Below the pieces are notes generated by a model, which was given only the letters and a program-made list of their open reading frames with translations, was not told the origin of the DNA and searched no databases. A stretch of DNA of 64,000 bases from Perna viridis (Eukaryota). The stretch is taken from contig CM074515.1 of the NCBI GenBank assembly GCA_037379345.1, positions 25,668,001-25,732,000 on the forward strand. Reading direction: 5' to 3'. Made by a program: the position numbers and the translations under genes. Positions 26,133-53,100 of this stretch are shown piece by piece (position 1 is the stretch's first letter; each line of letters opens with the position of its first letter).

Positions 26133-29100
26133 TCAGGAATATATAGTGATAACTTCATGTCCACTTCCTCGTACCATTAGCACCCGATCAATTCCTTCAG
26201 TTAATACCTCTAAAAACTCCATATCTAACAGATAATTAAGGAAAAACCTTAAAATGCTGATAAAAATGGCACATTATCACCTGAAAGCAAATTTAATAAG
26301 ACATGTAGTTATTTTCAAATCTATGAGAAGGATATCTCCTTGACTACACAGTAGTCTAGAGTTTTAGAACATTTCTGCTTACCACGAGTGATCTGGCATG
26401 GAATATACTAGTATATTATATACAGTTTTCCCCAGGCTAAATTTCACATTCCGCAAAGTAACCAGAAAAGGGAGTTCAAGAACACTAACTACATATCATC
26501 TTTAAGCATTTACAGGTTGATACTATCATCAGTTTTACTGCCCCCAAAATGACCTACAAAAACAAAATTCTAACTTTCTTTCCTTTCATAATAGCAAAAC
26601 AGGGAACCTTTAATAATAACAAAACACACTTTTGGAAAAAATTGTCATATAGAAAGACAGAACATACAAAATATGTACAACAGATATATTTGCACATAAA
26701 AATAGACAGAAGAAAAAATTAATGCCCCTAGAAGCTTAAAAGCATTAATGTGTAATAATGATGAGATTTTTTATGAAGGATACAGTTTAGTTCTCCTGCT
26801 TGTGACTTGGGTGGAGCCGGGAGATTCAATATCACAAGTTGTGCTTCATGAGATTTCTCTAATATTACTTCATTCAGCCTTACAGCTGTATGCATTCTTC
26901 TCACATTCTTCTTATCTCTGAAAAACAAATGCAAAGTTACGAAATTAAGGATGAAAACCATTTGCATTTACTAGTGTAAAGCATGATTCATATGTATGAA
27001 GTTAGTTCTTGTTTGAACATTTACTAACAGTCTGATCAATGCAAATTCAATTTTTTGTAATGTTGAATTGAATAAAATGTATTACAGACTGTATACATAC
27101 TATAAAATAGTTGGTGTTTTTTTGTAACTTTCTGGTCAATTAAAGACAAATCATTTGCCATTGTTTTTTTGTTTTGTTATGTACATGTATTGTTACAGCT
27201 TCGTTTTTTTCAAATAATGGAGTGATGGAAAAGCTTTGACAAATACCTTATTTAGATGTATTCGAAGATGAGCATTTCTTATGGTTTGATATTGAATTGA
27301 TTGGTTTAACTAAGGCCAGCTATAATTGATTTCTTGGTTCTGAAATGCTCCCTCATCTAATGTGAGACAGCCTCAGAACCCATTTTAACCAAACCACCAT
27401 CATAGTTTTTCTTCCTATCAACAATGTTAAAAGTGTGCTTATCACTTTTATTAGGAAAAAAATGTTTCCCACCTTTTTTCTTGTTTTCATGAATAATGAC
27501 CTGAGAATCAGGAAATTTACTTTGAATGGCCTATTAAGAGATTTGTAAGAAATACTTACGGTTTGATACTTAGCAGATCATTTGAAGGATTGGTAAGAGA
27601 TGTGACTGACTTAGAATTATTTGATGGTGTAAAAGTGAATTGATTTTTATCAATTGTATCAGTATCTGTGGAACTCTCAGAAGGTCCATCCTCATCTACT
27701 GTCTCCAGTTTGGCTTTCAAATGCATTGGTGTCTTTAAATGTGAGGAATCTATGATTGTCTGTGGCTACAACATAAATTAATTTTACATGAAATGACAAA
27801 AATGTCCTAATATTATTCAAAAAATCAGTATGATTTCAAGTGACAGATAAAATAAAAAAAAACAAAGACAAGATGGAAGGATGGATACCCCTATCACTGT
27901 AAAAACACGAAAAAGGTTTCTTTTACATTGCTCTAATAAATATCTTTGGGTAAAACAGAACATTTCATTTTGTTATATTTCAGACTGACAGTGTATGAAA
28001 TGTCTTAATTAACTCTGAATCTCTATAATATAATCTAGATCACATCAAATTCTTACCTCCAGACCTGTTTTTGATCCTCTCCTCAGAACTTTCAACATTT
28101 CTGATCTTTGTTCCATCATTAATGTTCTCTCATAAGTATAGGCTGATATGTCACTGTTACTCTGCAGAAGAAAATGTTCTATATTTATATATATAGACCC
28201 AGGTGCAAAATGCTTCCCATAATATAATATAAACAGACCCACACGGTAAAAGCATTTTAAAGACTTCCACACTGTTAAATTGATATTGTATTTAACATGT
28301 CATCATGTTACCTTTTATAAGCTACGGGTTTGGTAATGCTAAATTGAATGTCAGAATCTGAATGACAGATATATTTAAAACCATTTTTTTAAATATTAAT
28401 GTTATAAAATAAAAATTAAAAAAATATATATATCATAATGGTGTAGCCTATAATGATACAACTTGCGAGACTGAGAGTGATGGAACCATAAACCTCCCCT
28501 TACTTGTTCGAGGGTGTCAAAAAGATTAATTTACTTACCATTTCAACTACTTCCACTTCGGCAGTGATTCTCAGCTGATACATAAACGTCTCTAAATCTT
28601 TCTTCATTTGTACTGTATTATCCTCAAGTTCTATTATTATGTTAAAGAAAAGTACTGATCTAAATCTATTCTGAAAGGTCTTGTACTGTATAAGTTATTG
28701 TGGTACTTATTGATTTCTTTACAAATGAAAGGAATTGACAGAGCTTGGTTCATGTGGTAATTAGGTTCTTCATATCTCAAACCCAAATTTGTCTATTTTT
28801 AAAAAATAGTGTGAATTTGTATTTTTGTTGGGAATGGGAATTATTAAAACATTTCAAACAAACAGATTCTACTGCTTCAATAATTGTGAACTTTTCATGG
28901 CTTTTTTTGCCATATTTGTAACAGATAATTTGCAATGAATTAACTCTTTAAAATTGTTATAATACTCTATACAAGGGGAAGAAACTATAACAATGACTAC
29001 AGCAAAGATTTCACAAACAATTGTAAACATACTAATTTTTGTGGTTTACCAAATTTCGCTGTTTACGTGGCAGACAGAAAGCCGCTAAAAATAGTACTCA

Positions 29101-32100
29101 CGAAATTGGTTTTTCACCCTATATAACGCTATTCATTGTTTGAATCCGCAAAACTTAATATGATTACTGTATTCCAGGACACAAATATGGAAAAAAACAA
29201 ACAATGCAACAAGAGAATATTAATCTGGTGATAACAGACACCTCCATTCGAAGTTCTCAAAAAAAGGAAGGGCCATAACTACAATTATACACCATAACTT
29301 ATCTTGACCAGTACTTTCTTGTCCACAATATTGGGTTAAAATTCACAAAGGTTTGGCCCAGCAGTACTTCAAATATTACCCAGAAATTAAAAATGATGGA
29401 TGAACAGACAAACAAACATGACGATCATCATATATCTTTGACTAATACAGAGAAAAAGTGAATACAACACAACATTTTTGTTTGCCAAAGGATACGAGCT
29501 ACAGTAAATATCCTCAGTCTACAATTTTTGAATGTTTTATGCTGTTTTAGTAAGAATGGCAGTAACATCAGCATGCCGCCATCATGTACTATCCACCAAA
29601 TATCTACAGTACCGGTCAACTTCTCCGATGTATCTGGGAACTGATTAATTCCTTTCACAGCTAACAAGGCCATCTGACCGGCATTTATGTTCTTAATGGC
29701 ATCTACAAAGATAAGGTTATACCTAATGAATATCAATTTTAGAACATGTAACAATGTAATATTTCTTTTAATTCCAGTAGATACAAAAGTAATGGTAAAT
29801 TCATGATCAGCACTTCCAGGGGACATTCTGTCTATTTAAAAACTTCAAAATAATAAAAACATTTTTCCCAGATAGCATAAGTTTAAAGATATTGAGAACT
29901 ATTACTTTTTCAACACACAAATGTAAATCTGAAGAAATATAAACAGACATATTTCAGTAGCATAGGAGTGTCAGATTATATTACATTGCATTTAAATGTA
30001 CTGATATAAGAGAATTTAGAGGGGTCCAATGAGATTCGATGGCAACAGTTATTGTTCATATTTTTTGCTGATATTTGGCCAGTTTCTGAAATTGCCACCA
30101 TCAAATTTCTAAATGACCTAAATCAAGGTAATCAAGTTGGACACATACCAACAAAAACTTTGTAACTTCTCTCCTCCCCACTATGTCTCCAACCATATGG
30201 CCAGCCTATCATAACTGTATTATGACGTAATCCTCCTAAACCAGAGTTTTGTATTCTGTAAAAACAGAAGCATATACTTCTAGTATGTATTAAACTACTT
30301 TATCATAATCTTAAAAAAAAAACAAAAAACAACAGAGTTCTGTATCTGTGCAGCCATTTTTATTATATGCCAATTCCAGTCCTAGAATTAGTTTAAAGGA
30401 TATCATATTCATTTGAACTTTTGGGAATATGATTAATTGCTTCTTTTTGAAAGGCAGACACTACATGGTATTGCACCTATTTTTTATAAATGTAAAATTG
30501 CACTTCTTCTTTGAAGAATAAATTTTTAGAACTTCCACAATAAAACTTACAAATGACAAAGTCCATCGGTGACATCTTTAGCAATGACAACATCGGCAAA
30601 TCCTTTGATACCAGTGGTTTCTATTAGTTTATTAAGAGACTGTTTAGCTGCCTGGGCATCAGCATACTTCTCACTATAGTCTCCTTGTAATGTTGAGTTG
30701 ATTAAGGTCAGTCCTTTACCTATGGGAAAAAGGAGAATTTGTATACGATCTGTCTTTCATCAAGTTTTTGTAGCACTAACATTGGTAACATGCTTTTGTC
30801 ATATATATACCAAAATGTAATTTCAAAACATGAAATTGCACTCGTTGTCATGCGAAGTATTCCTCCTCTGGAGAATACAAGTCCCATGAAACAAGGATAT
30901 GATATTGAAGATAATTGCTTGTAAGGTATTCCTTATCTAGTAAAGCACTATACCACATTTTGAAATCAATTTGTCTAGTGGCAGCTGAGATTTTTTGCGA
31001 CGAAAAATGGCCAAGTCCCACAAAACAGAGAGTTTATGTTGGACAGCAACCAAAACCATTTACAACATATGCCCCATTTACAATTATCAGCTGGAAGCTG
31101 AAATAATTGCAACTTAATTCCAACAGTTGGACGAACAAGGTGATTCCAATATACCACCCACACACGGAGTAGGAGTAAATTAAAAAGGAAATGAGAATAT
31201 CATGATTTAAGTTCCATATAACATACAGTGTAAATCAATTCATTCCACAAATGACCTTTTTACACTTTTCACATGAAGTTAGAAAAATTGCATTACTATT
31301 GTCTTAAATGCATGCTATATGAATGGGTACTGATACACATGTTTTTTTTTTCTTTCAGCTTCAAAATCCCATGTCTCAAATATGATTTTGAATATTGTAA
31401 TTTTGATATGAATGTTTTTTTAAAGTTGCAATGAGAAAACTTTTTTTCAACAAAGAAATCGTGATATATCAGGTAAGTTTGAGTTTTTGCCATCTTTTAC
31501 TTACCAGTAGCACTTAATTAAAATCATTATGATCAAAACAAATATATGCTTTATACATGATTCTTATTGACTTAATATTGTATTGGAATAAAGCATATAC
31601 TCATGAATATGAAAAAAGAAAAACATGAAGTTGCACAGGTTGTCGTGTGTATATACATATCACCACTCGTACAGGAAGTTAATATCACACAGCAACTCAC
31701 TGAGTGGGGGTAAAATAATGTAACAAACTTTCCAAGATATCATTCAGTGGTTGGTTCATCTTTTTTAAGACATTTGATTCAAAAGTTGTGTAAAAGCCAA
31801 TGAAAATTAATCTCTTTTTGGTTTATTGAACAAAAAAAGAAAACAATATAAGAAGTATTGAAATTTTTTACCTGCTTTCAGTTGACTGGCAAATGTGACC
31901 ATTTTAGGATACTTTGGTGTCAAATCGGTGTTCATCTTCATTAGCACCAGCAACTGAGGTCTAGAAAAACAATTACTCAATTATTAACTACAAATTAGTA
32001 CCAGTATTTATGGAACTGAGAGGTTTGCATGTGGGTATTTGATCGAAAAATATAGCCCACATGCTTAGACAACTAATATTTTGTCAAAATTTGTCTTAAT

Positions 32101-35100
32101 CAGCATTTATGGTAGAAATATTTAACTATATATATTAACAAAGAATGTAGCCAATATTTCCTTCATAGAAATGTCACAAAAGCAAGTTTTTTTTGTTAAT
32201 TTGATCAAATTTCATCCTAAAGAGTGGGAGTATAAAAACAATCCTTACAAAGAAGAAATACTTTCTCCTTAAAAATATTGAACAAAGGAAATCAACCTGT
32301 ACTCCAGGAAGTTTTAAAACAAAGACTACCAAAACAAGACTTACCTCCAATTCTTGGTGTGTGGAGGTCCTTGCTGTAGTCGTAAGAGAGAATATCTAGC
32401 TGCTGACATGGCCAAACCACGGATTCCATCACCCCATTCCTTTTCAGCACTGAAAAAATTTTTAAAACAGTACAAATGTTATAAGTATAGCTAAGAAACT
32501 AGTTTCACTAAATGTATATTAAATAAATTAAAAAATAATTGTGATCTTTTATATCTGTTATGTACTAAAAAAAATTCTGGTGGTACCTTTCAGTAGCTTA
32601 GAAGGGTAAAAGTACCTGGTAAGGCCTCTTAGTAAAAGGCCTGAAGTGGTATACTTATTGCATTTTAAGCAACAAATTTTGGGTCCAAATGTCACAAAGC
32701 TTGTAGCCCTACATATTGACAGAGATAGAAGTGAAAGCCTGTAATATAAATTCTACACTCACGGAACAAAATTGTGCGATTAAGTTTGGGACAAAGGCTT
32801 AAGACTTTAATCAAATATTATCCAGTTAAAAGCAGAAAAAAATATTATGAATATCAAAATTTATTTATACAAACCCTTTGTATTCAATATATTTGTATAT
32901 CAGAGCAGCAAGACAAATGGCAGTAAGAGCATAGTACCAACTAGATATAAACATCAGGGTTATACACAGGGCAAGCCCTAGTAATGATAGAGTCCTGAAA
33001 TATAAATGTCAGGGTTATACACAGGGCAAGTCCTACTAATGATAGAGTCCTGAAATATAAACATCAGGGTTATACACAGGGCAAGTCCTAGTAATGATTG
33101 AGTCCTGAAATATAAAAATATGGGTTACAGAATATACAGGTCAAGTCCTAGTAATGACACATTCCTGATGTAAACATCAGGGTTATACACAGGGCAAGTC
33201 CTAGTAATGATAGAGTCCTGAAATATAAACATCAGGGTTATACACAGGGCAAGTCCTAGTAATGATTGAGTCCTGAAACACAAACATCAGGGTTATACAC
33301 AGGACAATTTGAAATCCTGATAACATATTTTTCTACTTTATAACTCATATTCAAATAGGACACGAAAATTTGTGAATTAAAATGAGAGAGTGCTCCATTT
33401 TTAATTGCACATCTATATAATATTTGATAGAAACTACAATAATAACCTACTTAATAGTACTTACCAGTGATAAAACTGGAACCTCGGTCTCCAACTTGGT
33501 GTTCTTAGTAATGTCTGTAAAGCACAGGCCATGTTTACGAAACCATAGCACATCAAGAAAAACCTGTAATGAAGTTCAAAATAAGACATTCTAAAGTCAT
33601 TATTATATTTTCAAATACAGATTTAATTGTTTTTACTTATTTATACAATCTAACCTTCAATAAACTTAGTACAATAAAAAATTACTCAGCAGTCTATCTG
33701 CCTAAAACTTCCCAACAGGACATTACGAGGCTAACATTCTGTGTGTGAGTATTCAGTACCAAGCAAATGTAAAACTAGGCTTTGATTTAAAAGTTTTTCT
33801 GCTACATCAAATACTGTAAACACATTAATTTTCCTGGTGAACACATTTTTGTTATACTCGTGGCAGATAGGAAAGCACAAAAAATAGTACCTGTGAAATT
33901 GATTTTTAACACTATAACAACCATGAAAGTTGACACCAGTGAATATATTCACTTGACAGAATCTGTGAAAATCAACAACTGCTAAAATTAATACCTTTAC
34001 ATTTATTAATGAAAAATTCACTGCAAAAAAAATGAAAACAAACACAAAAGACTGAAGACACACAGTCTCTGAAGGACATATGGACAGGACAATAGATAGC
34101 AAGGAAAGAGGGGAGACAACTACAACAACCCATAAAAAAATACCTACATTGTTATGATAGGAGCAACATAATCCAGATTAGCTATACAGATGCCTATCTC
34201 TGATATCAGTACAGTCAGTAATAGGGCTCTAAATGGTTCTCCTCTCTTGGTAGTCACACTGAAGATGTTCAGGAACGGCAACACTCCATCACAGGCAATG
34301 GCTTGGAGTAAACGAGGGGCACCTATAAACGGAAGTTTTAACTGTAAAATAAGATTTAACCGCAAGGCAAGGAGTAACCTAAGGCCAGCTAGGATTAGTG
34401 GTAAAATGGACATTTACAGTAATAGAACTGTGTAATTTAAATGTTTGTTCCTGTAGTGCAAATGTATTTCATAGCTATAACTTATTCTGATGCCATTTAC
34501 AGGATTTCCCATAATATTTTAGTCCAGGAACTTGTCCATGCAATTGACGTCTTTCATGAGCGTTTCTTGTTTTGCCCAAGGATTTTGCTTGTCAGCAAGG
34601 TTAATACCAGAAAATTTTTGGGCTGTTTATTATTAATAACCCCTTATTATGCCTAATCTGCACTTCTGACAATATTCGTCTGCAACCCTAATATTTGTTG
34701 TCTTTCGTTATATCGGAAAGGGAACTATGTTACACAAAAGGATAACTCTAGCTTTTACCGTAAATGTTCCAGTAATTCGAAATCTGACGATCAGCAAACC
34801 AACAGTAATTTTTCATAGTTTCATAGTATTTTCACACTTCACTTGTCAATTGTAATTGAATTATAACATAACTTTATATACTTTAATCATATCTAAAGCT
34901 GATAATAAAAAGCTTTATTTACATTTTTATAATAGTTTTCATATGGTAATTTTCATTAGAATCACAGCCAGAAAACACTACACAACAGTTCCCATTATTA
35001 ATGAGTTTAAGACTTTCATATAACTATCTGTGGTTTCAATAGTAAATTCAATATAAAATTTGAGATTTAACAGACACCTACAAATTCAAGATATTTATTA

Positions 35101-38100
35101 TCCACAAAAATAAGTTACTTTATTTGTGGGGGCTATGAATGAACAAGTGCAAAACTAAGGTTTATGCAAAACTTAATGTAGCAGACACAACTTTGGTCTC
35201 CATTTATGACAAGACTTAAGTTTTCAATGAGGTCATCACTGTTTATCAAAGTACAGTTCTGTCTAAAAATCATGCTGAGTGTGATCTATAACTAATTGAT
35301 ATTCAACTTTCAGTAGCCTAATCTGTATTCAATAGACCACTTTATTAGTTCCAGCATTGTCCATTTTCTATATTAATGTTGTATACATGAGACTTTATAC
35401 TGATAAATGTTAATCTAAGTCCATTTTTAGTGGTCAATGTTCTCTACTCTTTTCATAATAGAAACCAACTACAATTTAGCTCTTAATATCTACTAAACCA
35501 CATTTAACTGACACTTTCTTTGTTGAAAACCCAGTCTTCTGAAGGAATTACAGTCAAAATGTTTTGGTGTACACTAATTATCAGCTTTTGCATGATTGCT
35601 AGATGAAGTTATACTCAAAAATTTTAAATGGATATGCAAACTGATTGATTGTTGGTGTTTTTTTATATTTTGTTACCTTATCATTTGTTGATGTTGAAGT
35701 CAGTATGTCATCTACTATTCAAAATGTAATACTGATCTAACCTGTTAAACTCTGTAATCCTGCTCCAAGAGTGGACAAAAATGAACCAATCAAAATCACC
35801 CATTCATTTGGCCAAGAAAGTTTGGCAACAACCAACCCAGCATTTATACTCTCTCCAAACCTGCAATAGTTTGGAAAATACAAGACTCATGAGAAAAAAA
35901 TGTCTTGACGATTAACATAACCAATATAAATTCTTCAAAAGAAATTCATTACCTATGATCATGGGCGAAAGATAATTGGCTACTTCTTTTGTAATTACAT
36001 GTAGTCCATTTTTCAATGTTCTGCTTGATCCTGATTAATTTATTCCTCACATTATTTTGATTATTATCATTCATTACAAATTAAAATGTTGAGCCATACT
36101 TGCTATGGCACAAAGCGTCATCAGTATTGCATCTCATTCTATCAGGGTCAATCTGATATTGATGGAACTTCAGAGCGGACTTAATTCTATATTTTCATCC
36201 ATGCACTTTTTAGTTCCTAGGTTATGTATGTGACTTTTTCTTCACACATTGTCTTCATGGTGTTCTCTTCTGTGTTTAATTCAATACACAATATATACAT
36301 GTATACAGGTATTATACATGTATTTCATACTGTTGTATAGGAGTGGTATCCTAATTGCAAACTATCACCATTGGACCATTACTCTGACATCACAGTATAC
36401 ATTTTCTTCAATGAGAATCATTGCATTTTATAATACAACTTCATGGAAAATTTCCTGATGATCTCTTCATCAATTCCCTCTTTCTAAACAATCTAAATAT
36501 GAAAATATATCTTACTTGTCTCTCATCAAATCTCCTTCAATCAAAGCAGCAAAAAATATAACACATGTAACATCTAGATTTGGTTAAGGATAAATACTAA
36601 ATTACTGGTAATGAAAAAAACAAGAAAAATCCTGATATTGTCACATATGAAGGTATTTTTGTAAGTGGGTATCATTTGTTTATTAGTCAAAATTTCATTA
36701 TTTGTAGTTTTTAACTTGTGGATTTTACTACCACTAGTTTTTGTAAGGGGTTTTACATATTGATCAAGTTTTAGTTTTCAAGGTAGACTGAAACCCCAAT
36801 TAAAGCAAAAAATCATTAATTTGACCATGAGAACAAAGTTCAAAGTCAAAGATCACCAATCATGGTATGCGACACATCGGCTGGAGCTGATGTACTCTAA
36901 TGCCAAATAACAAAAGCCTACACCAAAAGATAAAAAAAGTTACGGTCCAGACACAAAACTGCCATGCAAAAATCATTAATTTGATCTCGACCAAATATCA
37001 AGGTCAATCACCAACCAATGTACAAAACACATTGTCTTGAGCAGATCTATCCTCATGCCCAATGTCAAAAGCATATACCAAAATTCAGGACTGGCATGTC
37101 ACAATCAAACCATAGAAAACTGTGATAGGTAAAAGGATACAGACAAAAGATGTTGTGGTAATAGCTAGAATGGTTCCCACTGGTATAGATCTAGAGGCAT
37201 CAGCCAAATCTCCTGACCTGTTAGATCCTGCCATTATACCTGTCAAAAGAATATTGTTATTCAGCATATTCTGATTTATGATACACGACTACCATATACT
37301 TTATCCTTACAGTGCAACAGAAAGTTCCATATTGGATGTTACTACAAAAGTAGTTCCTCACAGTCCAGATCAACTATAAGCTTTTTTGTATTGGACACTC
37401 AAAAATTAAGTTCTACAAAAAACAGCTTCACCATCAATTACTACTTGCAAAAGAAAGACTGGTTGACTTTGGTATTTTTTTAGTACAATGAGAGTTATCT
37501 TTTGTGATATAATGAAACTCTTCAATTGAATAATGGAAAGTAGTCAAAATTCATCATTTTTATTTGATACAAATGTATAAAAATCTGAATGCATAACAAT
37601 TTTTTAATTTCTTAATGGGAGTATATATATATTTGTTGTGCTACATCTCATCAAAACTTCTAACAGTGCTTAACAGGAATAGATTGTAATTTGAAATTCA
37701 CGAGTTATTTTCAAATTTTGTCCAGTGAATAAGTTTATATTTAAATGGAATTATTAGAACAGTCTCAAGAGATATTAAAGGTGCTGGAAGCAATAAGATG
37801 TCTCATAACATAGATCATAAACTAAGGTGGATTGATGGCCAATCCCCAATTGACAACTTCTAGCAATGGATTTATTATTCAGCAGTACAATGCCATCAAG
37901 TCATGATACAGGGATATTATTTTCTTCTCTAAAAAAAAGAAAAAAAAACCACTTTAAATGCTTTGTTCTAAAGTTATTCTGATGTAAATCAGCATTTAAT
38001 TCCCAGACTTCATTTCTATTTAGGGGTTTTATTGTTAACATTATGTAACGAGTGGATATGAACATGTAGCCATATATGAAATTAAAACCAATATTCCAGT

Positions 38101-41100
38101 TGGAATCTTAGATGAATATTGTTGAGCAGATGCATAATCAAATCTCTATAGTGGAACAAAATATAATGAGCATTTTCCTGGTCTTTATTTACGTATCCCT
38201 ATAAATAAATTAAGATGAACTTCTACATATGCATGAAACAAACAATGGCATTGTAAAGTTTTTAAGAAAATGCTACCTAATTAGATTATGTGGGAATTCT
38301 CTTCTAAAATAGGAAACTGATGTGAGTAAAATGACAGTGAAAGTAGAAAATAGTTTAGTTTCAATTATTTTCATTACTAACTTCATTGATACTTCTGTTT
38401 TTCAAAGAAACAAAAACAACAGCAAAGCCCTCCACATTCCCCCATTAGTGATACAAAGCTGAATGTTTTCTTTGTTTTTTTTTCTTTTTAATCCAAAAAC
38501 ACATTTTTTATATTTAAAAAAATAAATTTGGTTGACTAAAAAAGTCTTTGGGGAAATCGATGTAAGCCTGATATCTTCTCTATGAAGAATGAAATTAATA
38601 TTATGTCATAATTTCCAGAAAAAATAAATTACCAGTAACCGACGGAAAGTAAATGGCTAAAAGCACCATGAAATTGGAAGTAATATCAGCTACGATTTCA
38701 CCGTGTTCTCTGTTGCCATGGGTTTCTTCACCTATAATTCTGTCCTTCATAGTATACCGACTGTGTAAATTAGCTGCAATACAATAAATAAAAGTGTTTA
38801 ACAATCTTAAAACCTTGAGTTGGTAATCCAGTACAAAAAACAAAAGCTGTGCTTAGGAGTTTTACCTACTAAAAGTCTGCGGCTATGTTGAAATAGTCCT
38901 TTGACCTATTAGGAGAACAAGTTAAAATGTCTTCTATATTTTGCTATTGTACTGATAACACATTGGGACAGTTTTACAAACGTATATATCACTACACACT
39001 AGCTAATTCATACATCATACTAATTTATTAAGAGATGCCAGTGACCTGCATTGTATTAAAAGATTTAGAGTTGTCAATTTTGGAATTGATGATTGCAAAA
39101 TGAGTTTGCTGTTGACACCTCAGTAACTACTTTTACAGGACCATCAGATCAGAATTGATGATGACAAATTATCAAATATGACACAACAATCTCCATACTT
39201 AAGTGGTACTTATGCAATTATCAAATAAATTAATTACAGTCACAATTAAAAATCTTAAAAACAATGTAAAAAAAGAATAAACTATGAAACTTGCATGAAA
39301 AATGTATCCTTATCTACATACCAGTATTTTTTAATGAAATTTGGTGCAGTGGTTTTCTGAGGAGTTACACTTACAAAAGTGTGACGGACATGGCAAAACA
39401 AAATGTCTCCCCACCAAAGTGGGAGAGACATCATTTATACCCTGAAATTCACATCTTGCATTGAGTTTAGATACAAACATCGGTCTACAACTGAAAAATA
39501 ATAAAATGGTATACTGGTCAGAGAGTAGATCTTTCCATTTTCAAGATCAAAGCAATTCTTGCCAATCTGCTCAACAAAATTTTATTCCTTGATGAAAATC
39601 GTTGTACCATACTCATTTTTGAGAGCAAAAATACCAGCAATCTGTTGGACATTTTTTCCTAATTTTTTTACATGAACTCATTTTTCACAGGAAAGAACGA
39701 AAAATTGGTTGGCGAGAATTACTTGCTACCAAGAACTACTCCTTAACCAGTAGAGTAGAATTTTTCTACTTACAATTGATAACACCACTAGCCAGTCCAG
39801 GTATCCCAGGTATAACTTTCGTTACTTGTTCATTAAAATAGTCAGTACACAAGGTTTCATTGACTCCAACTGTACAGTAATGAGCATATATACCGCTATC
39901 ATTGTTCTTACTACAGTACATAGATCCATTCACAAATGAAACTGCAGAGGTTAAAAGTCGTTCTCCAAGGTAACATATACTGAAATGAAGGTCAAATAGG
40001 ATACGGATAGTACAGAGGTTAAAAGTCAGTCTCCAACGTAACACATACTAAAATGAAGGTCAAATAGGATAAGGATAATTTAGAGGTTAAAAGTATGTCT
40101 CCAAGGTAACATATACTGAAAATGAAGGCCAAATAGGATGAGGATAGTTTAGAGGTTAAAATTTGGTCTCCCTGGTAACATTTACTAAAATAAAGGTCAA
40201 ACAGGATAAGGATAGTGCAAAGGTTAAAAGTCAGTCTCCAAGGTCACATATGCTGGAATGACGGCCAAAAAGGCTAAAGATACTGCAGAGGTTAAAAGTT
40301 GGTCTCCAATGAATATACCAGTACTAAAACAAAGTTCAAATAGGGTAAAAGACCAAATTCTGTATTAATAAATACTGTAAAATTATGATTTTTTTTCTGT
40401 CTCCTAACTTTTTTTTATGTTAGGTAAATAGTGAATAGTGAGTCTCAGTAGACACATATACTGAAAAAAAAGATCAAATAAGGTAAAATATCTAATACCT
40501 CATAAACAATGTTAAGTAAGGTTTTCTTTTTATCATAAGTGCTTAATCACATTTATCATGTTTATAACTTCAAGAACTGTTAAAGTAGTATTTAGATTTG
40601 GCATATAAGACTTAGGTATATCAGCCCAAGTAGAAGCAGATTGGCCTTGACTATCTAAATTTTTAAATTTTCTTGTTCTGAAATTATTAATATACTGTAC
40701 AGTCAACAACAAAAAATTCTACATTTCATTATCTTAGGCCTGAGAAAAATTTATGTTTTTTTTTTCAGCTGAAAGGAAGTACACACCTAGAAAACCCTCT
40801 TGAGAATAACAGTGATAAGTTTAAGTTTACAAAAATATATCCCCACTACACTTGGACTTCAAGAATGAAACATCTTTATATTGGAATATTTTCCCTTGCA
40901 GGTGTCTCATAATAACTTTTTATCCATATTTACACAGAACAGCAAAATGTCTGATGAAGTTTAATCCAAATCCATCAAATAATTTTGTAATGGTTACAAG
41001 CTTAGAACATGTAAAACCTTTAATTTGGATAATCTCCTCTAGCAAGGACCATGCAATAATTATGTTTGTATCTTCCATCATTCTATATATGATGCTTTAT

Positions 41101-44100
41101 CTTTTTATGAAGTTTAATTAAAATCTGTCCATCAGATTTGGAACAATTGAACAAATCCCCTCGCAGGAATACTTCAATAATTGTCTTCCTTTCTTAACGA
41201 GTGATTGTTTGATCCTAATTTTACATCTGAATCTATACTGTAAGGTGTAAGGGATTTTTTTCTATGGAAACTGAATGTGTATATCAAGTAGCACAATAAT
41301 GGTATATATCTTATCTGCCTGATCCTTACATGAATCTATAAATAACTTACCTTACACTGTTGTCTGAATTTGACACAAAAAATCCAATATATATACAGAA
41401 TATAGACAATATCACACAAGCTAATGATAGTGCTGCAAATTTACTGACGAATCGTACACCTATAAATACTATCACTCCCAACAGTAGTAATATCAATGTC
41501 CCATACACACGATAATTGTTCAAAGCATTGGCTTCTATTGTCACATCACCAAACAATGAAATCTGTGGAGCCATAAATTTCTACAAAAAAAATATAAAAA
41601 ATATCTATATCATATTAACCTTATTTATTGATTGATTATGGTTTAAAATTCTATGGCAGACATTTCTTGCATTTCAGGACAAATATGAATCACCAATAGA
41701 ACAGACTCTGCTTTGTACTAGTCCAACATGCTGAGCCAGATGTTTATTGTTTGAGCTCACAAAAACGACAGCCCAAAGGTAGTATGCCATCCAAGTCAGA
41801 CACATTAATCTGACTCCAAGCCAACCAGTGGTCACTCTTATCCCCTGAAATACTGTGTGCTTGGCTTTGAGTATTTGGTGTAACTTGGCCAGGGATATAA
41901 CCCTTGATCTCCCACACTCAAGCCAAGCATGCTACCAAGAGACAACCGAGGTGGTATATTAAACTTATTATCTATCTAACTATCAGTTCAGTAAATTCCG
42001 TATCACCCCTTACTTAATACTCTCAAAAAGGACTTTTACCTGTTAGTTTTATCAATATTTTATTTATTTTGTGCAAAGACGAATGTTTATTTGTTTTAGG
42101 ATTCTTTAAAATAAACAATATCATTTGCCTAATTACTTTTTTTCTACAGAAATTTTACATTGCATTAGAAACTTGTATTTGTGGTGGGATAATTAACTTC
42201 TAAAAATAAAAGCTTGTACCCAGTGAATGGTACCAAATAGCAGGCATTTTTATTTATTTTTTTTTGTGGGGGGGGAGGGGGTGAGTGTTATGAACAAATG
42301 ACCTAAGCAATTAAACCTGATTAATTAGTGTTTTTTTGCATTATAAATCAGGATTTAGTTTCGTGGATGAAAAAATAAACCTTATATGCTCATGCTCAGC
42401 TGTTAATAAAAAGATACCACTTGTCATTTCACAGACCCATTTTTTTATAGTCAGCGCAGGAGACAGCCTTGTTGAATTGTCTGACTCATTTCAGTCTTAG
42501 TAGCACCAAAGCCACATATCAGACAGATGACCACTAATTTCTTTTGAATCATAGAAAGGTTATGATAAGGCTATGCTTAAACAAGCCCATTACAAGTCTA
42601 CTGATTGTAGTGTCTTAAACAACAATGTAAAATAGATGTTGACACATAAACATTACCACCTATTTTACATAGAGACAGAGATAATTGTTTATGTCCACTT
42701 ATATCAACATCAGTGAAAGAGAAAATGGTCGGTTTGAGACAAGTTAGGATTGTATAATTTGTATGTTTTATGAGATCCATTCTTTATTGACTTCTTAATG
42801 ACAATGCACATATTATATTGAATTCATTTGAACTTGAGATAGAAGTACAATTATTGCTTATTTTGCACAAAATTGTAATAAATTATGTAACTCAGTAATG
42901 TAGACTCTTTTTGTAAACTTTTGAAATTTTTTGTAAATCAACCAAATCAAGTAAACCAAAGTGGTTTAAAAGGTAAATCACCCTACCGGTGCACCTGGTC
43001 CATGCTCCCAGTTTTTAGTGGAGTCCGAGTTGCTCATTTACTTTTGTTACTTTGTATGTATGATTTTAGTTACTTTATGTTCTTTGTTGTATGTATCTGA
43101 TTTCCATGTCTGGTCTTTGTCCCTGGATTATATTCTTTTAATTACCGCTATAACCTTGGTTCCCTTGATTACTCTTTCACAAGTACTGGTAGCAGATAGA
43201 ATTTTTTTTCATATTGGAAAAAGTTCTGTGTTTGTTCATACTTCAATTTTTTAAGCTGATAATAAAGGTACGGTACTGAAGATTTGTTTACCAAAATCTC
43301 TAAAATCCCATAATTTTGAATTTAATGCATCATACCTGTCCATAAAAATCTTGAAACCTTTGATTCTCCACACTGTATGTATGGTACTGCTTTCTTTGCA
43401 GAATAGTAATAAGTATTGCATGTTTCAAATTCAAAATCTGTACCAATTGGTGAGATTCTATAAACAATATCTCAAGATTGAGTTTTCCAAACCTTACTTA
43501 AATACCAGTCCATATAAAATTCAGACACTGCCAATGGTAAAGTGATTCATGGTTAAGAAAAACCCACCAAACAAACGATACTTTTTCAGTCAAAATATGC
43601 TAAACTTTCACATAACAACAATCTTTTCTGCATTCAAATCTGCACTTTATAGAAATTCATACATTCATTTCCAACATAAATCAACCAAATCAAGAACGAT
43701 AACTTTTGTGCAAATTTCATGTACAATCTATATAATTTTTATCTCAAAAGCGCAACATCCAAATGAAAAACTAAGACTTGTTACGTGATCAGAATCTGTC
43801 TCTGAACAAGAAATAAAACTGAATTCATTGTGTTTTTGACATGAATGAATCACCTTCTGTCTGATTTTTTAGAAAGACTGCTACTTTAGTAACCAAAATT
43901 TCTTACAACAAGTATGTCCCATCTATATAAAGCCTTGGAATTAATATATCCAATTGCAATTCAGACAAAAGAACGACAGACAAAAAGGCAGACAATAGGG
44001 ATATTCCAATATACCACCCATTTGCCCATTGGGAGTACAATAAAACATTCACCAATCACAGCTGTATAACAAAAACTTACCAATAAAATCTCCACAGAAC

Positions 44101-47100
44101 CAATGATATACATAGAAGAAGCCACTGTTGTTCCTAGATAGAATAATGCTCCTACAGCCCCACCAAACTCAGGGCCTAAAGCTCTAGATATCATAAAATA
44201 TGATCCACCAGCAGGGACCACTCCATTGGTGGCAATAGCACTCATTGATATAGCTGTTAACATAGTCTGAAATGGAAAATTAAATTAGATTGAATTCTTG
44301 AATAATTTAATGATACTTTAATTTTGATTGGCTGACTTTTTTAATTTATGAAGGTTTGTTATGTATTTAGGTAAAACTGATCATTTTTTTCAAATGAAAT
44401 TAACTGCTTCGAAGTTGGAAATAGTGAACTAGGTGTGAAATTATCAGAAATAGAAGGTATTTTGGAAGAGTTAACTGAAAATTGTTGGCATTTGGGTTTC
44501 ATTTAGTTTGGGAGTGAGCTGGTCATGTTCAAACACAGATGAACCCCAAAAAAACTTATATATTCCTATAATGACTCTAAATACTGCTCAGCTTACCAAC
44601 TGTTAACATGCACTTGATCAATACCAACAATGACAGTTTTGAAGACGAAAGTACTACAGCATGCTAGACATTACTGATAGCATCAAACTTAATACATTGT
44701 TATTTGAAATCTTTGATTTTTTTTTGGCTTAAAAGCAATAGCCAGAGATAGAAAGTGTTTTAGGCAGTAAGATGAATGGAAAAATTGGTAAAAGTTGAAT
44801 ATGAAAATAATCATTCCATCTGACAAAAGACCTTAAAATTGAGACAAACATTGTTATGTCTTGTACAGTTTTGTTGAATTGTATCAGGGGGCTAATAAGA
44901 GCTTGTTCTTCAATGCCTGTTTTGTTCCATATTGACAATTATTTTTACTTATTTGTTTTTGACCTATTTCAGACAGGATTTATAGTCAATGTTGTAGTCT
45001 TGGGAGTTGAGGTATTTTGAGAGAATTTTCCTAACATCTCATTTTCTCCCATGTTGCATAACATTCCTGAACAACATCATAGTCTAACACACAGTTTACA
45101 GATATTCAAATTAAATCCTAAAAGTTTCCATTCTGAGGAAAGACTACCACAAAGCAAATTTAAAAGACATTTCCAGTAACATGAATTAAGACATGTAGGC
45201 AAGAATAATAAAATCAGAAAGAAATAGTTGTTAGAATTAACCGATAAGAAAAATGCTCGCTGCATGGCATTCACAAGCAAGACATGACCCACAATTTTCA
45301 AATTAAACTTTATTTAATGTATAGAAGTTGAAATTTTCGGTACAGCAACAATTGCCATTCAGAAACTACCATCTAAATCTCATTTCATCTTTCACTGAAG
45401 GAAAATCAGATTACACAAGCGAAATATTCCACATGCTTTTCACATGAACTTAACAGGGTTTTTATCTGAACTGAGAACATAAATTTATATGCATCAAATC
45501 ATTATAAATTTTCACATGAAACTCACATAAATATATAAAAACAGGACATATGGTATGATTGCCAGTGAGACAGTAATACACCTAAAGCCAAGCAACAAAC
45601 AATTAAACTTTTACAGGTCACCACACAGTCTTAAATGGTGGGCAAAAACCCATACCATAGAGCGAGCTGTTAATCACCTCAAACAAATGAAGTAAAACTA
45701 CTCATATTTAGGACAAAAATCAACATAATCTACAGAAAAAGCCTGAAATAAATATCAATGAATATAAAAAACAATGAAAACCAATGGACTACAGGTTCCT
45801 GGCACGGGACAGGCACATAAAGCATGAGGCAGGGTTAAACATGTTCGTGAGTCCTCAACCCTTCCCTAACCTGAGACAGTGGTGGGAAAATACAATAATA
45901 AAACAAACTGTAAAAATCTGTTGAATCATGTTTTCATGCCAAATTGTATTTATGTGAATTTCATGTGAATTTCATGTAAACTTCATGTGAACTATTTTTG
46001 CCAGTGTTAACATCTCAGCAACATCTTAAGTTATGCAAGGGAAATCAAAGGATTCAAACTATATCAAAAGAATATACTGACTACATGAAGCAGATGGCCT
46101 ATAAAGGGGAGACAAGTCATTATGTGTTAGCCATATACCAAAATAACTAATCACTCCTTCCAATGGGTACTGAGAAATCTGTGATGGAAAATTTCCAAAT
46201 ACCTCTAATGTAAAAATTCTAAGTCACTCGGAAAGCAGGAAGTTGATGACCTAGAAAGGGGAGACAAGTCATTATGTGTTAGCCATTTACCAAAAATCTA
46301 ATCATTTCCTTCATTAGAAGCCAAGAAATCTGCTATGGAAATATTTGTTACCATAAACTGTCTAAACTGAATTCTTGATACACCAGAAACCTGTCCAAAC
46401 AAAACTCTTGATATACCAGTAACCTGTCTAAACTGATCTGATACTCTAGAAACCTGTCTAAACCAAACTATTGATACCAGACACCTGTCCAAACCAAACT
46501 CTTGATACACCAAACACCTGTCTAAACTGATCTCTTGATACCAGACACCTGTCCAAACCAAACTCTTGATACACCAGACACCTGTCTAAACCGAAGTCTT
46601 GATACCAGACACCTGTCCAACCAAACTCTTGATATACCAGTAACCTGTCTAAACTGATCTGATACATCAGACACCTGTCCAACTGAACTCTTGATACACC
46701 AGAAACCTGCATAAACCGAACTCTTGATACCAGACACCTGTCCCACCGAACTCTTGATACACCCAGACACATGTCTAAACCAAACTCTAGATACACCTGA
46801 TACCTGTCTAAACCAAACTCTAGATACACCTGATACCTGTCTAAACCAAACTCTAGATATACCCAACACCTGTCTAAACCAAACTCTTGATACACCTGAC
46901 ACCTGTCTAAACCAAACTATTGATATACTAGAAACCTGTCTAAACCAATCTTAGCTTATTCATGTAAATTTTAAAGGCACTTTAAACCTGTATATATCTT
47001 AAACCCCAAAAAGTTCACTTAGGACAGTTTTAAGTGTATGCTAAAAATCATCTTCAAAATATTTACAATTTATTTGATCTATGAATGAATACAATATATC

Positions 47101-50100
47101 TCTACAAAATAACCAATCCAAACTGATAAAAAGAAACTCAAAATTCAAAATCAAATCAAATAGAAGTAAAATGCAAAATTAATCTCAAACTGGCAATCAT
47201 TCTGTAATGTACTTCAAGTATATATTCTATATATCATTTTAAATTCAATTAGGTTTATATTAGTTCCATCATTCTCGAGTAAAATTACAAGAAATCAGGC
47301 ATTTAACCAGTAATGTATAGATATATATGAAAATTTAATATAAGATGCATGACAAATGTATTTGAAGGTTGAACGGATTGAAACAAAGTCAAGGATTTAT
47401 TGCAAGGTTTCTATTGGTAGTAAAAAGTGATGTTTTAAAAATGGGTCAAAGAAAGAAATGGTTCGGTTGCCATAAACAAATATTCTGGTCTATGATTAAT
47501 TAGAAATGCTACCCTACAAAGTATTTTGTAACCTTAACACTGACTGATTAGTAGTAGTGCCCTACAAATTAAACTGTATTCTTCACACCATAACAAGACC
47601 ACAAGGTGAAAACACTTAATCTAAAACCATGTTACATTACTGTCAAAACAATGCAACTTAAAGATCATATTTATTTTTATAGCTTATAAAAGTACTAGAA
47701 TTACTAATCTATGCAGTGATAGAGTAAACTTTAAAACTGTTAAGAACCTCACAAAGGCTTCTTAGATCATGCTATTAAAGTCATAAAATACATGAAATAA
47801 CATTATTTGGAAACATGATCTTAAATGCAGAAGATCAAAAACTGCCTCAACAAATCTATTTGTATACAGTAGAACCTATCTAAATGAAACCTTGAACAAG
47901 AAGTGAGACATGTTGTCAGGCTAGGTATACTGCAACTCATACAAAAAAACACCCTGTACGCTCCATCTATATAAAGCTACCAAATTTAAAATCAATCCAT
48001 CCATTGGGAGCAAAGATTTTCTCTATCATTCCATAGAATGAAAAATGGCAAAGTCCAAACAAAACAAGAAGTTGATATAGTACAGCACCCAAAATTGCTT
48101 ACAAGATATGCCCCATCTATATTAAGCCAAACAACAAATTTGAAATAAATCCATCCATTGGGAGCCCAGATAACTGCAGTGTGCACCAAGAAATGCTACT
48201 CTCATATACATGTACCAACCTTTCATTGAGTGCAGGTATAAATTAATTGAAAACCTGTCTAAAGTCTCTTCACATCATTGTTGATAATTTTAAACCTTAG
48301 TAAACAGAACACCTGTATAAACCATACAAAGCCTTCAGTCTGTAAGTGGAGTTCAAAAGAGCTCACTGTAACTTACCGTAAGACAGCATATAAAGACAAT
48401 TCCCAGACTCTCAAACAACCCTGCATTTCCTACAATCCATGTCATACGGATGAACAACAGGACACCAAAGATGTTCTGTATTGTTGGTAGGTAGACACCA
48501 AATAATGTACCAAGCTTGGCCTGAAAAAATATAAAAAGAAGAAACTCTAACACTATCATTTTTCTGAACAAACCACAGTTATAGTAAAATACAATGTGAT
48601 AAATGCTTGGGAATCACATGACAGCATTAACGATACTGAAAAAGTTTATTAAATAGCTGATATCAAATTATATTACTCAATGATTAAATAATTTTAAAGT
48701 ATTCTCTCATCATTCACCTCTTTAATATGAGTTTTCTTTAGCTACCTTCACCTGAATTTGTGTGTGATCAATCTTCAATATTTTTTTTTCAAAAATCAGA
48801 TTCTGCCACCTTGATCAATGATTGATTATGATACTGATCATACTTTGTTAAAATATGTCAAAATATATAAATACTGTGAAAGTACTATAGTTCATGGGGT
48901 ACCAATTTTCATGGTTTTCCTGGGTTTTGTAAACCACAGAAATTGGTCCCCAACAAAAAGGAACTTTTCCATTAGTTTGTATGATTGTTGAACCCACTAG
49001 TTCAAGAATCTACAATCTCATAAACTTTCCCTAAACGACGAAAATTGGTACCCACAAATAAAAGTACTTTCACAGTATTACAATACTGGTACATGTACAT
49101 AGTCATGTGTCGTCTATAACAATTTTGATTTTGCCTTACTACTATCAATCCTACACAATTGTTAAATTAAAAATGTGGTGTAATTGGGGTTATCTATACT
49201 TCATTAAAATAATGATGAAACACTCTGCAAAGTGGTTCGAGGTTATTATGGATTGACAGACAGACTGACAGAGGGACATTTACCATAACTATGCCCCTCT
49301 TTGACCTTGGAATACCATCAGAATAGTGTAGTAAGTGATCTATTTTTTTCATCCAAACACTTATTTAAAATTTCATCGCATCAGTTTTGAATTTGAAAGT
49401 GGAGATGAAAATAAAATGTTCATTACAACAGTGACCAGTCAGAAAGGTGAGATGTGATAAAGTTATCATCAAAACTGATCCAGTTGGTTCAATTGCAATG
49501 ACAGTATGATTTAATGTTCATGTCTGAAATAAAGAGATATCTGATTTTTCAGTTCCACAGAGACTGGAAAATACCAATCAGTAAAAACAAAAGAAAAATG
49601 TTCCAGTTGCTGATAAAAGAGGTGATTTATAATAACAAGGAATATATCATAAACCTCCATCAGTGGATGGTTAATTAACTTTTATGTGCAGTTTCCAGAC
49701 TTAGATTTGAGTGCAACTTCTTGGCAGAGAAAATTTATATAAGTTCCTCCTTCAGTGTCTTTTTTCTGTCAATAATAATAGTTTTTTTTCTCCAAACTTA
49801 ATGGTTACACAGTAAAAACCAAGATTTTATCCTCATACTGAATGTGCAACCTGTATTTAAAAAAAATTTGTACAATTTTGTGTTTTGTTGACCACTCATG
49901 ATTGAATTAAACTGTTCACCCAAATAACCAAAGCTGCAATATGCAATGAAGATGATAAATAGAAAATCCATCCGCAATTGATGAAAATGTTTGAATGAAC
50001 AATGTGCAAATGACCATAAAGGAAAATTCATCCACCATAATTGATAATAGCTGCAGAATCAGTCAATTATATAATAATTTCACAATGACGCTGAAGACAA

Positions 50101-53100
50101 AAATAGCTCAATAAAGAAACTATGCACACTAAGTGTGCACATTCAAACAATGTGACCTGCATTATGTGACAAAGATGGTTAAATCATGCCACCGGCCAGT
50201 GTGTACATTTCAATAATCTGACCTTGACCCCAAGACAAAAATAGATTTTACCAAGTAATCACCGAATGATTTACTAAAGACTTCCAAGAAATATAGTACA
50301 ATGCAATGATTAAATTATCTCCCCATAATATAGATCAGCAAAATCGTACAAAAAATTTATAAGCTCCCATTACTGTCTATGACTATTTAGACACCCAGTA
50401 GATCTGTTGGAGAGATTCGGCTAATGTCTCACCCTCCAACAGAATCTACTGACTGTCTAAATAACCATAGATGGTCATCTGGGAGATTATAACTTATTAT
50501 AGTCCTCTAAAGGAAGGACGTATTTATTTTATACACAATGGACTCACTGACTGTTACCCTGTGACTTTTAACCTTGAATTGAACTGAAGAAATATCATTA
50601 CCGATCCACTGAAGGAGAATCTGTTTCATAACATTTAGAAAAAAAAACTTTATAAAATTGTAGATCAAACATCAAATGGATCAAGAGTGAACATACCATA
50701 TTCACACAATAAAAAATAAAACTGTTATTATATTCAGTATTGGTTATGAACAATTTGCAACTTGTTAGTAAGTAACTCAAACTTACTCTCATATCACATA
50801 CTGCTGAAAAAAGAGTTTTTATTTCATTCTTGATACTAATATTTCATAAAACCTACCAAAAATACATTTTCAGGTTATTATTTATTGATAATTATGGATT
50901 ACTTGTCAATTTTTCTCCCCAAGCAGGTACAACAAGAACACATAGAAAGAATAAAAATAAAAAGGTTGAGCAAAACAAGAAACATGTGAGCGACAGATCA
51001 CTAGTGATACCCTGCTTTCAATCACAATATAAGGAAAATAAATAAAGTCCTCCATAAACAGGAAGTTGTCAAATTTTTCCAAATATTGCATACCTACATA
51101 AAGAATGTGTTAAAATTTCAAACTGCCGTGATGAGTAGTTGCTGAGAAAACTGACAGAAAAAAGTGGATGGAAACAGGCAACAGTATAACCCCCTCTCCT
51201 TCAGAGACTTCAGAGAGAGGGAGTTCTAGGAATAGTTCCTCTTCTTATTTTCCTTACTACAAGAGGGCATTATGAGTCCTCATTTTCACAATAGCATTGT
51301 GGCTCATCAACCTCAACTGCCTTTTAGATGTTATTATGAGTAACCTACATGTATGCAATAAAATAATTATATTGAAGACCAATGGTTGGATAAGTAAATA
51401 CAAGTTTTAATTGGCCAAAAAATTCTATTTTGACCTCAGTCTTTGACTCAAGTTAGTATTTATTTCAGCCAATAAATGTTAACAATGACCTTTGTGAAAG
51501 ACTTACCACTTAACTGTAAAATAAACAACTATTTTTCAGTCTGATATAAAATCTATTTACTATAAATAATTCAAAGGTTGTAAAATTATAACTAAGGATA
51601 CAAAACAAGCATAAAGGTAGAATAAAAAAACCCTAAAGAACTAGCCTGCACACTGGCCAAAAAAGCATAGTTAATTAGGAAACTTCTGGGTTGGCAAGGA
51701 GGAAAACAAAAACAAAAGAAAGGTTACACATATTGCTGAGCAAAAAGAATTTCCCAGTCAGACAGTCTTACCAATTGGGCCAATTAGACAGTCTTTACCA
51801 CTGGGCCAATTAGACAGTCTTTACCATTGGGCCATTTATACTGGCTTTACCATTGGGCCATTTATACTGGCTTTACCAATGGGCAAGTTAAAGATAAGCA
51901 AAGATAACTGATAGATCTTTCCATCCACTTGAAAAGTCATCCTTTATCAGAAGTGACCATTTCATGATTTAATTTATTATTTTCATGCAGTAGAAGTAAA
52001 GGAAAGGATAAACTTATAAGGATAAATCTAACAACTATATTTGGTTGACTTAAAGCCAGGCAAATCATCCCTCATGACTTATTTATTTATGAAAAATAAC
52101 CATTTCATGACATTGACTGCCAATACAACAGACTAAGATTTCTCCATTTCATTTTTTTAAAAAAGCAATCCCAAGCAATGCAAAAAAAGAAAACAATGCA
52201 AAAATTGTATTTCATGCTTTTAAACCATATTTGCAGAAATCTCCTCTATACCTTAGTACTATCCTGTAATTTGAAAAAAAAGAGAATCAAAAAGTAAATT
52301 GAATTAATAAAGGTTAATAAAATAAAATCTTGTGATCTGAATAGAAGTCAATGCTTCAAATACAAAAATCTTGTGATCTGAATAGAAGTCAATGCTTCAA
52401 ATACAAAAATCTTGTGATCTGAATAGAAGTCAATACTTCAAATACAAAAATCTTCTGATCTGAATAGAAGTCAATGCTTCAAATACAGTGATAATACAGC
52501 ATTAAATGAAAAATGTCAAAACAATATCAAAATTGTTAGATATAGCATTTCACAAATTTTTGTGCAAATGTTACACACCAATTTGGATGCCCATAAAAAG
52601 AAGTAAAACATGGTTTTTCTTTGGCAACACTCTTATCAACAAAATCACCATGATAATAACTTTGAATTACTGATTTCCTTGCAACAAAAAAAATTTAAAA
52701 ATGTTTATACTTAAATTCTCTTTTAGATGTCAATTCAACATGATTTTATTTTTTTTTATATAAATTGAAACATGATTTTCAGTTATTGAAATTGTTTGTC
52801 CTTGCTGTCACGACCAAACTATTACTATCATCACCATTAAAATGTCCCCAATGTTACTTCATCATATCCTTACAAAGAAATGTCCCTACTCTTACACAGA
52901 AATGCCACTACTGTTATGTAGTGTCCTTACTGTTTACATGAGCAATCCTCTCTGTAACTGTAACATTACCTGTTTATCTTTGTCACTGTATTCTTTGGTC
53001 ATGTTTGGTTCAATTCCTGCCTGATAATTGGCAATCCTGTTGAGGATCTGAGAAATTTTTCCTCTGGCCTGCAAATCATCCTGAAATACAATCAAGGCGT

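Follow-up and report, generated by a model that had tools for sequence, protein, structure and literature searches.

Minisatellites of the kind called 'mirage', whose tandem unit spans an intron-exon boundary, have already been described in amphioxus. They occur in the globin genes BflGb6 and BflGb9 (PMC3087553), in PGBD5 and troponin C (PMC3902484), and in Adh3, where the units measure 10–72 bp (Canestro et al., 2002, as cited in PMC3087553). In the portions of these reports that were available, no effect on the splicing of BflGb6 is described and its copy number varies between haplotypes (PMC3087553), and amphioxus mirages are said to give no aberrant mRNA (PMC3087553; PMC3902484). Two human loci are also relevant. 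In the accessible parts of the respective papers, the downstream site of the 68-bp duplication CBS 844ins68 is strongly favoured (PMC2630376), and the pseudo-sites of the 37-bp VNTR F7 IVS7 are functional in principle but silent, with position deciding between them (PMC1557585). We found no description of mollusc mirages in the literature that we searched by titles and the starts of abstracts, most subscription papers being outside reach.

Here, we analysed a 64,000-nt stretch of DNA from the mussel Perna viridis (hereafter the window), which holds a potassium-chloride cotransporter (KCC) gene (Table 1). An array in this gene is a mirage minisatellite. Its tandem unit spans an intron-exon boundary. 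The authentic exon edge forms the copy at one end, and the other copies are intronic and retain splice dinucleotides. A preliminary description, made from the sequence alone, had placed the array in front of a KCC exon. This is confirmed by tblastn and by a search of one exon against a protein collection, which returned SLC12A4-7-like KCC proteins with a Mytilus protein as best match (95%). A 23-residue span is kept in 58 of the 59 homologues matched in the array region, and the remaining one is a pattern artefact.

Table 1. Splice-boundary arrays and associated features. Positions refer to the window, or to contigs of the genome assembly G000 where a contig is named.
Feature	Position	Strand	Basis and remarks
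SLC12A4-7-like KCC gene	26136..56899	-	23 exons matched by tblastn with M. californianus protein P0003; first coding exon(s) unmapped
Upstream exon (FFLMCYG...FQFYHW) with donor	33465..33563	-	tblastn, read joints
Host intron, 470 nt, phase 2	32995..33464	-	Read joints; position common to other animals
True KCC exon, 120 nt (W/TLSLLG...YIEYKG), spliced at last AG	32875..32994	-	tblastn with P0003; read joints
55-nt splice-acceptor-spanning minisatellite (mirage)	32945..33316	-	6 intronic copies plus the exon's first 50 nt; TRF, alignment
Six intronic copies with decoy AGs	32995..33316	-	AGs before 33316 (weak), 33272, 33217, 33164 (weak), 33104, 33049
Second acceptor mirage, 68-nt unit (~31 intron + ~37 exon nt)	39943..40348	-	TRF, alignment, boundary test
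Exon behind second array, 206 nt	39774..39979	-	Last-AG use inferred from protein homology only
Donor-side mirages	G000 C1:16830623, C13:1422175, C5:985550, C8:17259244, C11:4420735, and others		
Further donor-side mirages	G000 C15:4037845, C10:8137384, C10:6903864, C9:687405		

TRF places the array at 32945-33307 on the minus strand, with a period of 55, 6.5 copies, 85% matches and a score of 541. This is in line with the earlier account of a 55-bp unit that combines the intron end (~6 bases) with ~49 coding bases and is repeated about seven times. In the alignment, the unit consists of 50 exon nt plus TTCAG; a 49+6 split fits equally well, because one T is common to both ends. As the unit holds only 5 intron nt, the working polypyrimidine region is exon-derived, which agrees with what had been stated for the pyrimidine and branch region of the real acceptor. 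With the split at CAG/GA, the decoy positions in Table 1 are the first bases past the CAG acceptors, and the corresponding base of the true acceptor is 32994. The decoys lie 322, 278, 223, 170, 110 and 55 nt from the true AG, and none of the six offsets is divisible by 3, exactly as described earlier. Translated in the phase that the upstream exon sets, each of them leads to a stop after 13–49 codons, and only the most downstream copy continues the reading frame, as the preliminary description had it. The probability that all six are out of frame is (2/3)^6 = 0.09 for independent offsets, and the first two (55 and 110) are out of frame because the 55-nt unit forces them to be. The out-of-frame offsets are not beyond chance. 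The outermost copy is degenerate and aligns to the exon with 11 nt of gaps; the copy at 33164 carries a 5-nt insertion.

In the available text of the amphioxus reports, the array of BflGb6 has the same anatomy as ours: the 3' end of the intron, together with the 5' part of the exon that follows, is repeated head to tail, and most AGs are intact. The 55-nt unit falls inside the 10–72 bp range of Adh3, and copy likeness is similar (81–100% in amphioxus, ~85% in the mussel KCC array). Both amphioxus, as far as those texts go, and this mussel make normal mRNA, and both have 5' as well as 3' boundaries affected in the genome. However, the present host is a mytilid mussel, and its unit, with so few intron nucleotides, differs in having an exon-derived polypyrimidine region. 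Length instability is reported for amphioxus, whereas in the mussel only the depth of two DNA runs (X3 and X4) differs and no contig spans the array. Furthermore, the amphioxus reports, in their available portions, are single-gene cases, whereas we estimated a frequency per splice site.

The mussel array also resembles the human loci, as far as the accessible text describes them. In CBS 844ins68, too, the intron/exon junction of an acceptor is duplicated, splicing takes the downstream site, and the exon-like copy upstream of it leaves with the intron. Yet the insertion at that locus adds a single copy, is polymorphic and rescues a point mutation, whereas the mussel KCC gene has six extra, diverged copies. 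In F7 IVS7, the terminal unit likewise spans an exon boundary, but on the donor side, and the mechanism was shown there by 50 constructs in mammalian cells, whereas our KCC case is read from sequence and RNA joints.

Reads were mapped to positions 31800-35900, with the raw RNA run X21 sampled at ~19 in 100 reads; X11 is a run of unrecorded kind whose contig is spliced. The preliminary description had proposed following the RNA joints from the donor at 33464. The sole joint found at this intron is 32993-33464, at the last AG, with 2 reads in X21 (exon depth 1–3) and one spliced contig of depth 20.2 in X11; power for minor products is low, as joints with fewer than 3 reads are listed only if they occur in a contig, and contigs drop rare forms. 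The next joint (32449-32875) was seen in both runs. Our results show that the main spliced product uses the last AG and that the normal mRNA continues to be produced. Over the array bins (33033-33306), RNA depth was 0 in both X21 and X11, at an exon depth of 1–3 in X21, and no aberrant transcripts from decoys were observed at this exon depth in RNA prepared without NMD block.

The preliminary description had suggested that the array serves as a dosage control, in which a share of the transcripts is spliced at decoy AGs and destroyed by NMD, and copy number tunes the KCC level. Premature stops follow from all six decoys, and NMD would hide decoy products. The zero RNA depth in the array speaks against this explanation, and so do the amphioxus mirages, for which the available text reports no aberrant mRNA (PMC3087553; PMC3902484). 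We return to this explanation after the survey of other genes.

Why, then, is the last AG used? It might win by small sequence differences between near-identical acceptors, as was also proposed in the preliminary description. Candidate differences exist. The motif CTGACAT is private to the copy adjoining the exon, as had been noted; that copy also carries a C-to-G change, and position 19 of the exon is a G that is missing from every intronic copy. Enhancer sequence beyond exon nt 50 would lie only behind the last copy. Scores from an acceptor matrix nevertheless give the true AG no advantage. The matrix was built from 608 acceptors of the genome, with the KCC sites outside the training set, and leans to T-rich sites because the acceptor calls are heuristic. 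It scores the true AG at 10.9 and the decoys, going outward, at 11.2, 11.9, 4.2, 11.2, 9.4 and 4.0, so that three decoys (11.2–11.9) do as well as the true AG or better. The claim that CTGACAT is a better branch-point match than CTGATGT did not hold in this genome. With the A at -40 to -15, CTGAC is found in 5 of the 608 acceptors versus 11 in a control zone, whereas CTGAT is found in 21 versus 10. Moreover, the A of CTGACAT would lie only 15 nt before the exon. The idea that the adjoining copy offers a better branch point was rejected on the CTGAC counts, and an RNA structure that hides the decoys was rejected as well, since predicted accessibility from local folding showed no pattern and no advantage for the true AG. 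Since some decoys score no lower than the true AG, acceptor choice is best put down to position rather than to sequence. This is further supported by the other arrays inspected (see below), every one of which continues into coding sequence through the copy adjoining the exon body. Discrimination by local sequence is therefore an unlikely explanation.

Position could act through exon definition, which we propose because the flanking introns are 470 nt (upstream) and 425 nt (downstream) long. The exon would be recognised across its length, and the AG nearest the downstream donor would win whatever its local score; the exon measures 120 nt from the true AG and 175–442 nt from the decoys. This rule is taken from human data and may apply to the mussel by analogy. 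In the available text of the human study, sites closest across the exon are preferred when the flanking introns are long, and with short introns the upstream 3' site is preferred, over a range that covers 148, 192 and 247 nt (PMC9225289). These three lengths are those of the introns that the three outer decoys would leave. As far as that text goes, a minor leak is therefore possible, a point that also favours a dosage role. The 5' 148 nt of the host intron are not repeat-derived. Without the array, the intron measures only ~148 nt, so that exon definition does not readily account for the founding duplication. The sequence that now serves the last AG as polypyrimidine and branch region would be exon-derived. 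Rare use of a decoy would lead to a premature stop and clearance by NMD, which may lower the cost of the array and so act as a safety net rather than a design. Our preferred explanation, to which we assign a probability of about 0.78, is that this is a mirage in a mussel KCC gene, of which the last copy is spliced in the RNA seen, while the extra copies are probably tolerated and serve no regulatory purpose.

DNA from other individuals bears on the reality of the array. The contigs of X3 and X4, which are runs of two further studies, stop at either edge of the array (32974 and 33280/33274), and in neither run does a contig span the array. Depth in two array bins is 248 and 359 in X3, versus 61 and 78 in the flanking bins, and 0 and 19 in X4, values that do not give the copy number. 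The pile-up in X3 indicates that the repeat is present in other animals. The empty bin in X4, where X3 is deep, could represent a shorter allele and would then favour a dosage role, but a hole in a contig proves nothing. Both X3 and X4 have another base in place of the G at 33317, so that the outermost decoy AG is missing there, which speaks against a dosage role. Alternatively, the array might be an assembly artefact produced by duplicated reads, which would fit with the lack of a single spanning contig. Yet the copies are only 85% alike and have private indels, the contigs of both other studies break at the array edges where X3 depth piles up, and many similar arrays occur elsewhere in the genome. 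The mutual differences between copies, the contig breaks and the X3 depth show that the array is not an assembly artefact, an explanation with next to no probability.

The mirage may go back to a local event, slippage or unequal exchange, that duplicated 55 nt spanning the acceptor, and later turnover would have added copies. Going through the copies, the shared variants run CAAT/CTAT/diverged and then CAAT/CTAT/exon, a pattern that suggests one duplication of a three-unit block. The host intron itself is older than the array. Among 80 metagenome loci with a KCC exon, 40 hold both exons, and these have an intron at this position in 19 cases, are contiguous in 19 and unclear in 2. It is this presence in 19 of 40 loci that shows the greater age of the intron. 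The metagenome loci are distant (39–84% identity, no mussel among the introns compared), and within this sample TRF found no array on the orthologous acceptor in any of the 19 introns, which is a further point against a dosage role.

Three other origins were considered and rejected. Intron gain by tandem duplication (the Rogers model) conflicts with the intron at the same position in those 19 of 40 loci and with the 5' 148 nt that are not repeat-derived. Derivation from an AG inside the exon itself, at +54, with no contribution of the intron, is less parsimonious, as the unit ends in TTCAG and the exon has CTAG. A dispersed or mobile origin was discarded because a 711-nt query gave one match in the genome assembly, in a search that skips very common words. 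KCC genes of other animals in the metagenomes have short boundary duplications, one on a donor (L311:2407-2521, 48 nt x 2.4) and one on an acceptor (L325:4958-5079, 63 nt x 1.9).

The mussel KCC gene contains a second acceptor mirage (Table 1). It has five intronic copies at offsets of 68, 136, 205, 273 and 344, and a possible remnant at 481; the possible decayed outermost copy, at 40460, lies behind a strong T tract. The offset of 273 is in frame, but a stop follows after 6 codons. Here, the matrix scores the true AG at 6.9 and the five repeat decoys at 4.1–6.4, and this slight lead is a point in favour of discrimination by local sequence. Our boundary test detected both arrays and none on the gene's other 21 acceptors and 22 donors, a few positions being approximate and one donor 5 nt off. 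Two arrays in the 23 acceptors of one gene exceed the survey rate given below (~14% for a second, given the first). The gene also has a candidate 12-nt microexon (DSTK) at 52252-52263 (minus strand), preceded by a 41-nt array and a long T-rich tract. It sits at the DKDKQ/AKLG junction, at which KCC proteins of other molluscs differ by 2–3 residues.

Other repeats in the window are of a different kind. Two 33-nt arrays (15744-15927 and 46358-46948) have a common GGTTTAGACAGG core, which is present in several other stretches of the genome. They are a dispersed minisatellite family and are not exon-derived. Two long open frames at 8690-10431 (minus strand) resemble a Mutator-type transposase in their motifs; the 444-aa frame among them holds a 336-nt (112-codon) tandem duplication at 8710-9382, 99% identical.

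How common are boundary arrays in this genome (assembly G000; 723 Mb, 46 contigs)? We surveyed 644 exons of five gene families in 1,679,136 bases, using Pfam searches for myosin, SNF transporter, kinesin, kinase and ALDH domains and tblastn among paralogues. The survey left out 13 AMP-binding matches (long single frames), a tandem kinase cluster on C6 and 50 of the 130 stretches planned for the second round, and one Pfam and five tblastn matches were discarded as decoys because they fell inside arrays. At C6:22858000-22920000, a partial kinase frame is repeated in tandem in about 20 near-identical copies. The lag test scored tandem copies that span the boundary, on the intron side only, and was positive for 4 of 609 acceptors (0.66%) and 13 of 619 donors; in the opposite direction, it scored 1 of 1,228 sites. 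Mirage-like structures are thus found on about 1–2% of the sampled splice sites. The rates are rough, because the test misses some arrays visible by eye, the controls include arrays on unannotated exons, and only five families were sampled.

Control frequencies were 105 of 12,000 (0.88%) for random positions, 0.33–1.08% for positions shifted 60–800 nt into the intron, and 180 of 19,326 (0.93%; bootstrap over segments 0.75–1.13) for a grid. The grid value falls to 130 of 19,326 (0.67%; 0.51–0.85) once units dispersed in at least two other segments are removed. Acceptors were at background (one-sided p 0.82 and 0.59), whereas donors reached 2–3 times background (p 0.006 and 0.0004); jointly, they gave p 0.083 against the random control. 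In the first, smaller round, 2 of 269 acceptors and 8 of 272 donors scored versus 40 of 6,000 control positions. An annotation-free check of 157 arrays found 18 donor-type and 6 acceptor-type arrays in 314 strand tests, versus 7 and 12 in 314 random windows. The excess at donors indicates that the repeats are not placed purely at random. Donor-side mirages occur in kinesin, myosin, SNF and kinase genes, with up to ~52 copies.

Nine acceptor arrays were inspected, and in three of them the exon was assigned by reading the translation against family motifs. Their units are 55, 68, 32, 60, 65, 35, 39, 32 and 33 nt long, 3 of the 9 being divisible by 3, and in 2 of the 9 the closest decoy keeps the frame and meets no stop. 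Throughout the inspected arrays, it is the copy adjoining the exon body that leads into coding sequence. The in-frame, stop-free arrays at C15:4034525 and C1:66347710 would add 20 and 11 residues, respectively, and are candidates for real alternative acceptors. One myosin gene (C15:4034525-4042577) has at least four boundary arrays in 8 kb, with acceptors at 4034525 and 4042476 and donors at 4037845 and 4039064, which suggests local clustering.

A dosage control finds no support in these data. Acceptor arrays are at background frequency and without frame bias, and, together with the zero RNA depth in the KCC array, this makes such a role very unlikely. The possibility that out-of-frame offsets are a design was likewise rejected: three 55-nt units read through meet a TAG in the third frame anyway, the in-frame decoy of the sister array is stopped as well, and two further acceptor arrays keep the frame without meeting a stop. 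In an extended form, length-variable mirages on 1–2% of splice sites, with donors above chance, would include acceptor arrays that leak copy-number-dependent transcripts to NMD and so act as heritable expression dials, here for the KCC of an osmoconforming animal. We hold this to be a most improbable speculation.

The single KCC array is ordinary for this genome, and the useful part of our results lies in the rough survey frequency and the donor excess. Boundary arrays can mislead gene annotation, as both Pfam and tblastn matched decoy copies. If the survey rates apply genome-wide, there would be ~1,300 acceptor and ~4,000 donor arrays (with an assumed figure of 200,000 introns), and the mussel would provide thousands of natural constructs in which near-identical splice sites compete. 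The donor excess would then point to a duplication bias or to unequal purging at the two exon edges, and such constructs would offer a direct test of exon versus intron definition in a mollusc.
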